64,000 bases of DNA from Eledone cirrhosa. Its lineage: Eukaryota. Under the pieces are notes generated by a model. It had not been told where the DNA came from. It ran no database searches and worked only from the letters and a program-made list of their open reading frames with translations. The stretch is taken from the NCBI GenBank assembly GCA_964016885.1, contig OZ024740.1, forward strand, positions 330,150,001-330,214,000, read 5' to 3'. Below, piece by piece: positions 23,185 to 42,056 of this stretch (position 1 is its first letter; each line of letters opens with the position of its first letter). Position numbers and translations under genes: made by a program.

Positions 23185-24101
23185 CAATTCTAGTTTCCAT
23201 TTATTTTATCATGTTTCGCTGTGATCAGTTTTCTCTCTCCTTCTAGCTACCTATTTCGTTACTATCTACTCTTTCCCCTCTTTCTTCCTCTCCCTTTCTC
23301 CTTCTCATTTTCACTCATCCTCTCTCTGCTAGCTACCTCATTGTTTCCCTTGCCTGACCGTCTAGCAGTCCTTTTTTCACACTACACACGCTGGGGTCAG
23401 ACGTGTCTTTTCGCTCGCCAAACACGCTCTTGAACTTAAGTTCTCTTATCGCTGTGGTCTTGGGTTTTCTTATCTTAAGTTGCTCGAACATTGCTCGGTT
23501 TGTTGTTTTTATTCGCTGTTTTCTCTTTTCTTCCCTTTTCCATTCTATTTTCCTTCCCTCCTCCGCCGTTTTCCCAATAACTTATGCAGTTATTGAACGC
23601 TCTAGGCGGTAGATATCTTGTCTTTTAAAGCGTGGTAATATCCGCGACCTCCAGTAAACAATGGATGAAAAATCTCCCCCCGCCCGTTCTTACTTTCTTC
23701 TTATTCTCACTCCATTTTAAGCTACCTTTACTAGCAACTACACAGCCAATCCTATTCTCCATTTATTTTATTCTATTTCACTGTGACCAGTCTTCTCTTT
23801 CTCCTTCTACCTTCCTATTTCTTCCCTTTTCCATTCTATTTACCTTCCAACCCTCCTCCGTTTTCCAAATAACTTACCCAGTTATATATATATATATATA
23901 TATATATATATATATATATATATATATATAAAAATTAGAAATGGTGCTCTGAAATAGCGATACATATATATATGAATGTATATATAGTGTATTTTGCAAT
24001 ACACTGTGTGCTTAATTAAAAGCATTTCGAAGACCTGACGCTATTGTTTTAGAGTAGTGACAGTTTCACTTACTTTAATTTTCAGCAAACATGGAAGATA
24101 A

Positions 24102-24146
24102 AGCTGACAGAGCTCTGTTTCGCACTTTTTGGTGCTTATCAAAGCT
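24102..24146 (-). ncRNA. Hammerhead ribozyme, U3-A8 core variant
   Basis: agct-TTGATAA-gcac/caaaaa/gtgc-GAAA-cagagctctg-TC-agct. Confidence 0.8.
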
Positions 24147-24378
24147 AAGTATTCCGCCTGTTTACTGAAAATGATTCGAAGTGCTTTTCATTAAGCATAC
24201 AGTGTATTGCAAAATACACTATATATACATTCATATATATATCGCTATTTCAGAACACCGATTCTAAATTTTAATTTCTGCTTGACCGGTAACCGCTCGG
24301 TATAATCAGTTCCTGATTGTTACTAGAATTCTATCAGAATCAAACATTCATGATTTTCAGCAGACAGGCGGAGTACTT

Positions 24379-24423
24379 AGCTTTGATAAGCATCAAAAAG
24401 TGCGAAACAGGAGTCTGTCAGCT
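24379..24423 (+). ncRNA. Hammerhead ribozyme, U3-A8 core variant
   Basis: agct-TTGATAA-gcat/caaaaa/gtgc-GAAA-cag/gagt/ctg-TC-agct. Confidence 0.8.
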
Positions 24424-24989
24424 TTATATCCCCTGTTTTCTGAAAATTAAAGTAAGTGAGACTGTCACTACTCTAAAACAATAGCGTAAGGCTTCGAAAT
24501 GCTTTTAATTAAGCATACAGTGTATTCCAAAATACACTATATATACATATATATATATATATATATATATATATATATATATATATATATATATATATAT
24601 ATATATATATATATATATATTTATATATACACGCGTGAGTCTATATTTGTGTCTATGTCCCATAACATAGAGAATTCTCATAAATATCAATCAATTTTGA
24701 ATGATATGTAATACGGTCCATATGTATACATTAGAGTAAACAACATTGTTATTCTCTATATAAGATGCTTTCAAATTTACCATTATATTTATTTATTATT
24801 TCTTTTATTCTCTTCTGTTTTGCATATTGTTTTTCTTTTACCTTCGTGTTGATAAGCGGGCTCAACGCTTTCTGCCACCAGTTTCCTCTGTGACGGCTGA
24901 ATGACTGCCAAACGGCTCAGCTACCCTATTTGTATCAGCGAGCTTCTCAACATTACCAAAGTTATACCAATTACATCAATTGTCAAGTC

Positions 24990-25225
24990 AAGAGTACTCA
25001 AACTGTACAGTCATATAAAAAGAAGCAATTCCTGGTGTGAGTAGTTTATGCCTGGAAGGAAGGTTGGCTGGTAGGAGAAGCAAAGGCCGGCAGCCGAAAG
25101 GATGACTTGATAATGTGAACAATTGGACTGGACTTGATCTTTGCTCTTTGAACCCTGCTACTAGTGATCGCACTTTGTGGAGAGAGATATCACATATTAA
25201 TGCGCAGTCTGCAACTGGCGGAGTT
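24990..25225 (+). mobile_element. RTE-clade LINE 3' remnant
   Basis: Translates LEGRLAGRRSKGRQPKG*LDNVNNWTGL...DRTLWR, the RTE C-terminal pattern. Confidence 0.7.
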
Positions 25226-38700: not shown

Positions 38701-41228
38701 GAACACTGAGTCCACCACTGTGCCGGAGCACCACTTGAGGACTGGGGAGAAGCCAAATAAGACGCCAGGCCCACATAAGAGGAATTACAAAAATGATGTA
38801 CGGACCTGTAATTGCCGTATTGGAGAGGAGTGCCTTCTGCGAGGAATGTGCCTGACTAAGGGCGTTGTCTACAGATGTGTGGTTACCACGCACAATGATA
38901 GGCACACATACATCGGAGTTACATCCACGACTTTTAAATCGAGGATGTACAACAACTAGAACTCGTCCAAGTAAAGGAACAAGAGACACTCCACCAGACT
39001 GGCGGACTTAGTATGGGGACTCAAAGACCGTGGCATAGAGTTTAACCTCAGCTGGAGTGTTGTACAGCGTGTGAATGCGTACTCGGCCGGGGAGAAGAAG
39101 TGCAAGTTATGCCTGTCCGAGTCAATGGAGGTAGTAAAACTTAAGGGCGACGCAGTCAACCTCAAATCTGAAATCATCATGGCCTGCAGACACCAACGTA
39201 AATGCACGCTCTCCGCTTTAGTGATACTGGATGGATCTACCTAAGGCACTACCGCCATCACAACACCAGGTGGGGTGCATGAAGCAGACCACGATATATA
39301 ACACAGCATATCTATGAATGAATGTCGGAACAAGCTGATATCAACGACAGAACCAGCGATGACTACCTCGTAACGTACCCTGGATAGCACCACCACACTA
39401 ATTTGCGGACGCCGACTAAATATAAGTCTGATTTGGTCTACACACCTATGTGAGCTTTTAAATTTCCAAATTTTTTAATTTCCAATTTTTGATTTTCGAT
39501 CTTCGATTTTTTGGTGTTTAATTTGCTACGTAGATGCCGGACCTGGTGCTGGTCTTAATGTTAATGTCGCAGTTAATATTTAACTTTGCCTGCCGTTAAT
39601 ATATACACGCCTACAATACAAGCCGCTGGCACATTCCAATCATGCATACATTCCACGTACATTTCATATATACTGTTATGAAACACACACCCTATATATT
39701 ACATGTATACATTCACTACATGTACATCTCATATATACTATTATGAAATGGATGTTATGCACATCCACAATATATATAACTTGTTTGTGTACGCACGCAA
39801 GTTCCCCATGTGACCACCAGCCATGAGACCTGCATCATGTGCATGCTCTTATACAGTCCCTTAGATCACTAGTCCCCATGTATATTATATAACCATATGC
39901 ACCACAGCCCTCAAGGATTTTATGCAACTTTATGCAAACCCCAATAATGTCCGGACCACTCTGCATCCTTGTCATGTATACACTCCTTTTTCCAGTATTT
40001 TATTTTATTTTATTTCATTTTATATTAGATTATTTTATATTATTTTATTTCATGTATATACAGACATTTTTTATATATATGTGCCACCCTAGTTATATGT
40101 GATTAGTGCAAGGATACTATGCGGCTATAGCATTTATGCATATTGTATATGCACTTTCGGGCTTATATCGCCACATGATCGGATTGGGTCCAACCCTCGA
40201 GAACGTTGACCGATATAATACTATGTGCACCATGTGCACAGATGCGCGTGTGTGTACGGATGGGAGGGTATTAATCAAGTATGCGCCCTCGATATGAACA
40301 TACGTGGGTACATGTATGTATGTGCGTCCATGCATATATGCATACGCACGTGTGCGCACATGTCTGGGTGGATGTCTGGTGTATGAACATATCTGTGTGA
40401 GGGTATGAATTCCTATGTGTAGATCTTTCTTTTTTTCATCTGTGTATATATGTGGAGTGTCTCAAATATTCACGCTTCCCTGAGTACACTGTGTAAGTGT
40501 AGATATGTGTATATTTATAAAATTACCTTCGAAATAACTTTTTATGAAAGGCTGTTCCAAGCATTCATTTTAAAATGTTCTTCGTACAGAGTTTTCTTTT
40601 TAAAGTATGTATGTTTTAAGGTATTCTGAGGCCGTGTTCTTGAAACGAAAGGCTAAATATTTTTCTAATATTTTTCTAATATTTTTCTAATTTGTTTTAA
40701 TAATTCCCGCCAAGCATTATTTATGGTCATCGTCGCATACAATACAGTTGCGGGTGTAGACGTCGAAGGGCCGCCAGCCATTCAAGCATACAACCCCTTA
40801 CCTACTACAGTGGTAATTCCGATCTAAGCAACAAATTTGATTGACAGGTGGAGAATGAAAAGAACCAAATAGTGGATAACCTTGAGTTGCTCGAAATATC
40901 GATGACGTGTACAATTCTTGACAACTCATAGAACGATAACAACATGATCTAAGCCGACAGGCGAAGGATATCGATGTAAAAGGACATTAGGAACATCTGC
41001 ATCGTAGAATCAAGATGCATCTGAGGACCTTGCGATTCTCAGGTTCGATCATCACATCGATCGTGCCTCGAGCTGGTCGCCAGAGAAACGATTGTAATAT
41101 GTCCAATAAATTCCATTCGTCGCAACACTGATTCTCTTTTTACTGTGATATCATACTCTGCTCTGTGAGAGCATCGAGTGGTCAAACGGCATACCTCATA
41201 CGGAGGCTTTCAGCATCCAACACCAATT
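35785..41228 (+). mobile_element. Near full-length pseudogenised PLE bounded by direct pLTRs (35785-36345 and 40660-41228)
   Basis: Direct repeats of about 560 bp around the RT-EN pseudogene. Confidence 0.85.
36560..39243 (+). pseudogene. PLE RT + GIY-YIG EN with several stops and frameshifts
   Basis: PSDKTGNIY, FDIAMGASDSA, IYRDD, SNHP, FNAPYS, CNCR...C..GVVY...YIG, CKLC. Confidence 0.92.
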
Positions 41229-41268
41229 ATATATATATATATATATATATATATATATATAGGAGTTC

Positions 41269-41525
41269 GCTTCAAGCATAGCTTTATACAATTTGTATAA
41301 ATATTTCGTACCTCCAAAGAAATACGGTTTTAGGAAGCCGTAGCTATGCAAACCATGGGGGCCTGACGCCCCCAGAAATTCATAGACAGTTGTCATCCTT
41401 GCTTCTGCTGGACTTCACCAGATGGCGTTAGCCCCCCGGTGTTTGCATAGCTACGGCTTCCTAAAACTGTATTTCTTTGGATGTACGAAATATTTATACA
41501 AATGTTATAAAGCTATGCTTGAAGC
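41269..41525. repeat. Fold-back inverted repeat (about 100-bp arms)
   Basis: e.g. ttttaggaagccgtagctatgcaaac / gtttgcatagctacggcttcctaaaa. Confidence 0.9.
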
Positions 41526-41543
41526 AAAATGCTATTTTATTTT

Positions 41544-42056
41544 CAGTACGAAACAGAGCTCTGTCAGCTTTATCTCCCTGTTTGCTGAAAATTTAAAGTA
41601 AGTGAGACTGTCACTACTCTAAAACAATAGCTAAGGTCTTCGAAATGCTTTTAATTAAGCATACAGTGTATTGCAAAATACACTATATATACATTCATAT
41701 ATATATCGCTATTTCAGAGCACCAATTCTAATTTTCAATTTCTACTTGACCGGCAACTGCTCTGGATAATCAGTTCCTGATTAATACTAGAATTCTATAA
41801 GAATCAAACATTCATGATTTTCAGCAAACAGGTGGAGTACTTGACTTTGATAAGTAACAATCAGTACGAAGAAGACCTCTGTCAGATTTATCTCCCCTGT
41901 TTGCTGAAAATGTAAAGTAAGTGAGACTGTCACTACTCTAAAAAAATAGCGTAAGGTCTTCGAAATGATTTTAATTAAGCATACAGTGTATTGCAAAATA
42001 CCCTATATATACATTGATATATATATCGCTATTTCAGAGCACAAATTCCAATTTTT
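41544..42056 (+). mobile_element. About 1.6 tandem copies of the 318-nt HHR repeat
   Basis: cagtacgaa at 41544 and 41862; TTGATAA at 41847; GAAA-cagagctctg-TC-agct at 41550. Confidence 0.8.

Follow-up and report, generated by a model that had tools for sequence, protein, structure and literature searches.

The 64,000-nt stretch of the Eledone cirrhosa genome analysed here (contig OZ024740.1, positions 330,150,001 to 330,214,000; the window) carries, near 24 and 41 kb, copies of a non-coding unit of ~318 nt that contains a type I hammerhead ribozyme. This genome holds well over a thousand copies of the unit, inserted in (TA)n sites, and the unit probably spreads as a retrozyme, in which an RNA circle is copied by the rolling of a Penelope-type reverse transcriptase (RT)/endonuclease. 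Its ribozyme has U and A at core positions 3 and 8 (U3-A8, in UUGAUAA), a pair that reads C3-G8 in homologous families, and these families together appear to constitute a clan of retrozymes lacking long terminal repeats (non-LTR retrozymes), classed by the genomic definition of that group. The strongest result comes from the arrays of a 310-nt C3-G8 sister family outside the window.

This sister family, first met in an array neighbouring a U3-A8 locus and bridged to the unit by further families, is colinear with the U3-A8 unit over the full length and shows compensatory changes in the hairpins and the rod. In the 3.0 Gb searched it gave 15,464 pattern matches, no member of the family being found in the window; the first 100 matches fall in 16 loci, from which we estimate ~2,500 loci. 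Full units were obtained from 16 of 26 loci examined. Within these loci, 461 of 530 unit pairs are identical (257/294 on the same arm, 204/236 on opposite arms), and units differ on average by 0.15 nt within a locus versus 4.76 nt between loci. The 16 loci hold 13 distinct monomers, and single arms comprise up to 12 full, near-identical units. In very young loci, variants, among them 1-nt indels that give a period of 311, are fixed in every unit on either arm, which requires a bottleneck of one unit; some variants counted as private may occur in unsampled loci too. Such a bottleneck would come from ribozyme excision and circularisation, and units that are identical within a locus and differ between loci are what would be expected from rolling on one circular monomer. 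The family appears to be still spreading.

The insertions themselves have the geometry of PLE (Penelope-like element) insertions: an inverted 5'-truncated arm, a ~35-nt tail on one end and a TA target. PLEs are described with an inverted arm and a 30-40-bp tail present at one end only (Craig 2021, PMC8557442), and in vitro the tail of a PLE spans the interval from one internal RT start site to a second, both DNA strands being cut and extended (Frangieh 2024, PMC11167929). Here, 3' ends fall at two positions, A and B, separated by ~35 nt, and each arm uses one of them. Among 46 head-to-head U3-A8 loci, 29 have both ends at a defined position, in the combinations A+B (25), A+A (3) and B+B (1); the 310-nt family combines A and B in 18 of 19 head-to-head loci, and the exception reads A+B in a separate analysis. 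Across the clan, the genome contains 21,282 matches to the ~35-nt tail motif.

For the U3-A8 family, a 32-nt core pattern matched the genome exactly 466 times and its reversed control not once, so the hammerhead motif is not due to chance; within this context G8 occurs in only six copies and C3-G8 in none. A sample of 68 loci chosen by this pattern, all on contig C1 and selected for an intact core, showed both orientations in 47 and an arm longer than 330 nt in 39, while a TA run lies within 40 nt of a 3' end in 63, compared with 8.7% of random flank positions. Median divergence from the majority sequence is 3.1%. Of the deviations from the majority, 29% are shared within a locus versus 8.5% between loci (the pairs are not independent), an eroded form, in an older family, of the single-template pattern of the 310-nt arrays. 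At least two complete ribozymes on the same strand occur in the family at L067, L271 and L273, as well as in the 310-nt arrays, and at neither window locus. The search for copies and tandem arrays suggested in the preliminary description of this DNA thus turned up both, including a 17-unit U3-A8 array (L067:3132-8957, minus strand) whose units are 3-17% apart and share recurring variant blocks. A PLE 3' end lies 119 nt further on, and the array is possibly a chimera or a DNA-level expansion. A metagenome scan gave six matches, none extending past the search pattern, and viral contigs gave no match.

Within the window, the 24-kb and 41-kb copies represent one unit with 87-93% identity, as the preliminary description had recognised (Table 1). 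At 24 kb, two head-to-head arms join at ~24175, with one hammerhead per strand and both 3' ends running into (TA)n. Each hammerhead is made up of stem I AGCU, UUGAUAA, a 4-bp stem II with a CAAAAA loop, GAAA, stem III and GUC; stem III of the minus-strand copy is a perfect palindrome, and cuts are predicted after the C at 24106 on the minus strand and after C24419 on the plus strand. The Rfam model HH9, the top match in this part of the window, finds them with E values of 0.00098 (minus strand) and 0.023, under the gathering score. The short hairpin near end A has a counterpart in the 310-nt family, with compensatory changes. Two properties that had been assigned to both loci need correcting: the period is 318 nt at 24 kb (anchors 24190/24508 and 24212/24530) and 319-320 nt at 41 kb (anchors 41610/41929, 41654/41974 and 41704/42024), and the 24-kb locus, with its arms head-to-head, does not form a tandem. 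The remaining description of the unit stood, namely UUGAUAA in three copies (24383+, 24142- and 41847+), intact downstream elements from stem II to GUC in both 24-kb copies, entry into (TA)n at the 3' ends of both loci, and no meaningful open reading frame (ORF), the longest ATG frame in a two-unit copy being 35-37 aa. A fold-back assembly artefact was considered for the window locus and ruled out because the arms differ by ~9% and their staggered ends lie in unique flanking sequence. At neither locus do two intact ribozymes share a strand; since the intact ones lie on opposite strands at 24 kb, and those at 41 kb are one half and one degenerate copy, the window copies are old, decayed and unable to release a monomer.

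Table 1. Features of the two window loci and location of the young arrays of the sister family
Feature	Position	Strand
(TA)n microsatellite, target on the left side of the two-armed insertion	23883..23930	
Inverted arm, 5'-truncated, ends at the tailed 3' end (end B)	23930..24175	-
Type I hammerhead, U3-A8 core, U3 at 24142	24102..24146	-
Direct arm, ~1.2 units, period 318, ends at the short 3' end (end A)	24175..24560	+
Short hairpin just upstream of end A	24202..24219	+
Long rod around the ribozyme (extended stem I)	24350..24449	+
Type I hammerhead, U3-A8 core 24383-24389, GAAA 24404-24407	24379..24423	+
(TA)n microsatellite, right target	24538..24629	
Single arm, ~1.6 units, period 319-320, ends at end B, then (TA)n	41543..42059	+
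Hammerhead 3' half, 5' core gone by truncation	41543..41570	+
Degenerate hammerhead: UUGAUAA retained, GAAG for GAAA, stems II and III damaged	41843..41888	+
~35-nt tail, the stretch from end A to end B	42017..42057	+
310-312-nt C3-G8 arrays, very young, two-armed	L069:3599-6265; L136-L140; L171-L188	

How are the two states of the core pair related? With the 310-nt family excluded by the patterns, the genome holds 1,714 U3-A8 and 1,500 C3-G8 cores (either-state total 3,320; reversed controls 0, 0 and 1). Positions 3 and 8 pair in 3,214 of the 3,320, and 106 cores are mixed. About half of these cores would escape a CUGANGA search, as had been anticipated for U3-A8, and the earlier interpretation of U3-A8 as a compensatory change is supported by covariation against the homologous C3-G8 families of this genome. 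In midpoint-rooted trees of 103 and 27 rows, from which rows without both flanks were filtered out, U3-A8 rows occupy two separate places with C3-G8 families in between. Forcing the 13 U3-A8 rows, a group defined by the trait but chosen after the first tree was seen, into one clade was rejected (p-AU, the approximately unbiased p value, 1.5e-8). By these trees, at least two switches between C-G and U-A have taken place in the core pair. More divergent members with UUGAUAA cores and other stems II and III lie at L199:1035-1160 and L235:995-1114; their cores are possibly further independent switches, outside the tested tree. A variant pair in stem II is U-A in 60, C-G in 53 and otherwise in 6 cases (n=119). 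Over 32 representatives, 90.5% of cells pair, with double changes in 4/4 pairs of stem I and 8/13 of the rod; 117 cells show double changes versus 46 in shuffles, and the long rod, which none of the search patterns included, is 93.5% paired. The Rfam gathering score was reached by none of the four loci scanned (three C3-G8 relatives and one 310-nt array).

Folding predictions offer a possible control of the ribozyme. The circular monomer, whose folding had been put forward as a check, has a predicted energy of -84.5 kcal/mol versus -51.2 +/- 4.7 in shuffles (z = -7.2 and -4.5 for the circular fold). In the lowest-energy monomer fold predicted, the core pairs with stem III, and in eight of nine natural dimers (11 loci, two without a usable pair) the double-hammerhead fold is predicted to be 3-9 kcal/mol cheaper than two single folds. 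The prediction is a blocking helix between core and stem III that keeps the monomer off, with cleavage favoured in the double-hammerhead fold. An in silico return to C3-G8 makes the active fold ~3 kcal/mol costlier in the main U3-A8 clade; the swap to U3 may have been fixed because it weakens the blocking helix by this amount, a rationale that is post hoc and considers secondary structure only. No antisense hammerhead with stems was found in either family, other ribozyme classes not having been searched specifically.

Taken as a mechanism, tandem transcripts would be made and would self-cleave after GUC into monomers, which a host ligase would circularise. A PLE-type enzyme would then cut a TA site and prime both DNA ends on a single circle, at two internal positions; rolling of its RT round that circle would give arms longer than one unit, with all units alike. 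Mobilisation of RNA circles by PLEs has been proposed for retrozymes (PMC7229834; Li 2026; de la Pena 2020; Weinberg review, PMC6765202). Several points weigh against this proposal. Two strict same-strand ribozymes occur in only 3 of the 68 sampled U3-A8 loci, so templates are rare now and the case for rolling comes mainly from the sister family. There, a homogeneous parent array would give identical units too, and assembly polishing could inflate identity within arrays. Pairing at 3-8 in 32/32 representatives and the invariant core columns are partly imposed by the search patterns. In the folding analysis, two circular values (41 and 45 kcal/mol) look like artefacts, the energy costs ignore tertiary contacts, and C-to-U swaps tend to reduce misfolding in any sequence. 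Of nine Xenopus retrozyme dimers, eight failed to cleave (Li et al. 2026, 10.64898/2026.07.22.740005), and hammerhead cleavage was dispensable for insertion of the PLE tested in vitro (Frangieh 2024, PMC11167929). Moreover, the partner PLE was not found, and the unit shares no sequence with the 3' regions of the PLEs examined, in a search that covered 194 loci, eight PLE-linked window or locus regions and 20 PLE loci, Naiad and most PLE families lying outside it. A TA-targeting PLE family (window 1774-2580; 33,858 candidates, open frames of at most 1,213 aa, 98.4% median identity among the best copies) likewise has two 3' ends; its tail measures 45-57 nt versus ~35 nt in the unit, and the 20 PLE loci showed no sequence common to the two.

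The dispensability of cleavage in vitro (PMC11167929) also speaks for an alternative in which the unit, a PLE derivative that is not autonomous, is copied from parent-array transcripts that are linear, multimeric and uncleaved, its arrays growing at the DNA level by unequal crossover with neither ribozyme nor circle required. Local amplification by unequal crossover has been invoked by Li et al. (2026, 10.64898/2026.07.22.740005), and the diverged units and recurring blocks of the L067 array fit this alternative, as does one monomer common to 4 of the 16 young 310-nt loci. In the U3-A8 loci, a sample biased to intact cores, the 5' truncation points do not cluster at the cleavage site, which points the same way. 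Copying of linear templates only shortens arrays, yet arms of 12 full units exist; the variants and indels fixed across both arms of very young loci need their one-unit bottleneck; and compensatory changes maintain the fold of the ribozyme among widely differing families. We therefore regard copying from linear multimers as unlikely.

A more radical variant of the circle reading, which we hold to be distinctly doubtful, is that the clan is partly a population of RNA circles replicating RNA-to-RNA in the germ line in the fashion of viroids, each two-armed array being a snapshot of one circle on which a PLE enzyme primed both cut ends of a TA site. The 13 monomers in 16 internally near-identical loci, the dense compensatory change and the ladder-like tree would suit such a population, as would cloned mussel circles without any database match (Cervera and de la Pena 2020, PMC7229834). 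Against it stand the estimated 2,500 loci, an ample supply of unsampled DNA parents, the monomer found in four loci, and the lack of an antisense hammerhead in either family.

It is very improbable that the unit is the pseudo-LTR (pLTR) of an autonomous PLE and the insertions are truncated forms of it. Two arms, a tail and a TA target are each typical of PLEs, and locus L032/L068 adjoins a PLE ORF; still, units follow each other head-to-tail without an ORF between them, and the ribozyme is canonical rather than of the minimal PLE type. Because the unit is a terminal repeat of an ORF in 0 of 194 element loci, with a PLE-type ORF match nearby in 32, this explanation is largely refuted for the sampled loci, including the version in which the unit always sits on a PLE ORF. 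At L068 (6069-6633) the ORF is broken mid-frame and joined to the unit via a short inverted piece, a junction that may reflect a template switch or a deletion. The non-autonomous, PLE-type retrozyme family of the preliminary description fits the genomic evidence. Hardest to credit is a DNA-level rolling-circle element (Helitron-like) or satellite carrying a hammerhead-like sequence passively: such elements too show identical tandem units, a 3' hairpin and microsatellite association, but two inverted arms whose ends are staggered are a signature of PLEs, ribozyme and rod show covariation throughout, including many G-U states, and mixed cores are just 106 of 3,320.

PLE-type frames with RT or GIY-YIG features, from at least five families, lie at 13200-16400, 17600-17780, 20190-22700 and 36456-39300 of the window, with further ones at 57110-57640, 1774-3130 and 62455-62840; C3-G8 hammerhead-like cores occur at 13318(-), 16267(+) and 17699(+). 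Six of these frames gave no Pfam family, and the assignment relies on atlas look-alikes at 0.96-0.97, on HTH_animal/GIY-YIG annotations mostly carried by a minority of members, and on motifs. A two-armed inverted element at 9400-10020 has a canonical hammerhead (core 9679, minus strand; Rfam HH9 E=1.4e-05); unrelated to the unit in sequence, it possibly represents a second retrozyme clan. Short inverted-repeat elements flanked by TA runs (23060-23190, 41262-41535, 42096-42320 and 43230-43310), two with hammerhead-like cores (23140+, 43297-), are likely truncated two-armed PLE-type insertions. Between 10017 and 13170, ~3 kb of TA repeat ends in a run of N, an assembly gap.

We would like to place the clan in the context of known systems. 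Like the animal non-LTR retrozymes of coral, mussel and axolotl (PMC7229834; 10.64898/2026.07.22.740005), the unit is non-coding, ~310-320 nt long and of 34% G+C, with one canonical type I hammerhead per unit, copies from monomers to long arrays, a highly paired predicted circle and co-occurrence with PLEs. Unlike those retrozymes as described, it shows U3-A8 in several families and two-armed tailed insertions in (TA)n, neither of which was found in the available portions of the retrozyme literature (PMC7229834; Li 2026; de la Pena 2020; PMC6765202), and no pLTR homolog was found here, compared with 24 of 57 Xenopus retrozyme families (Li et al. 2026). A description of this clan was not found in the literature covered, mostly open papers and without repeat databases. 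The U3-A8 pair itself is not the novel part, as it has been published both for natural hammerheads (Perreault 2011, PMC3088659) and, by Cervera and de la Pena (2014, PMC4209133), for ~1,300 PLE-type motifs of Schistosoma mansoni. The compensatory change is the same as in the Cercyon PLE of S. mansoni and the Perreault motifs; those motifs are minimal and mostly single, whereas the hammerhead here is canonical, has a 4-bp palindromic stem III, sits in a repeat without an ORF, and exists in both 3-8 states in homologous families. With endonuclease-containing (EN+) PLEs and non-autonomous Chlamys elements such as MRC1 (PMC8557442, PMC11167929), the unit shares the inverted 5'-truncated arm, a 30-40-nt tail on one end, the microsatellite target and head-to-tail multicopy non-autonomous forms. 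It differs from them in having no ORF, no sequence relationship detected with any autonomous family, arms of up to 12 near-identical units and canonical hammerheads, which are missing from Naiad and Chlamys. Rfam Hammerhead_HH9 (RF02275) aligns with the unit in core layout, in the 4-bp stem II and in the CAAAAA loop; the 3-8 pair is swapped, and the score is 24.7 bits versus a gathering score of 52.

The idea that PLE enzymes copy animal retrozymes from circles dates from 2014-2020 and has so far stayed mostly a hypothesis. The insertions described here carry both the end signature of PLEs and a multi-unit pattern pointing to a single template, which makes the question directly testable. Ordinary within its class, the clan bears unusually clear genomic footprints of mechanism, making it a useful test bed, and supplies a naturally occurring set of homologous ribozymes in which the 3-8 pair takes either state.

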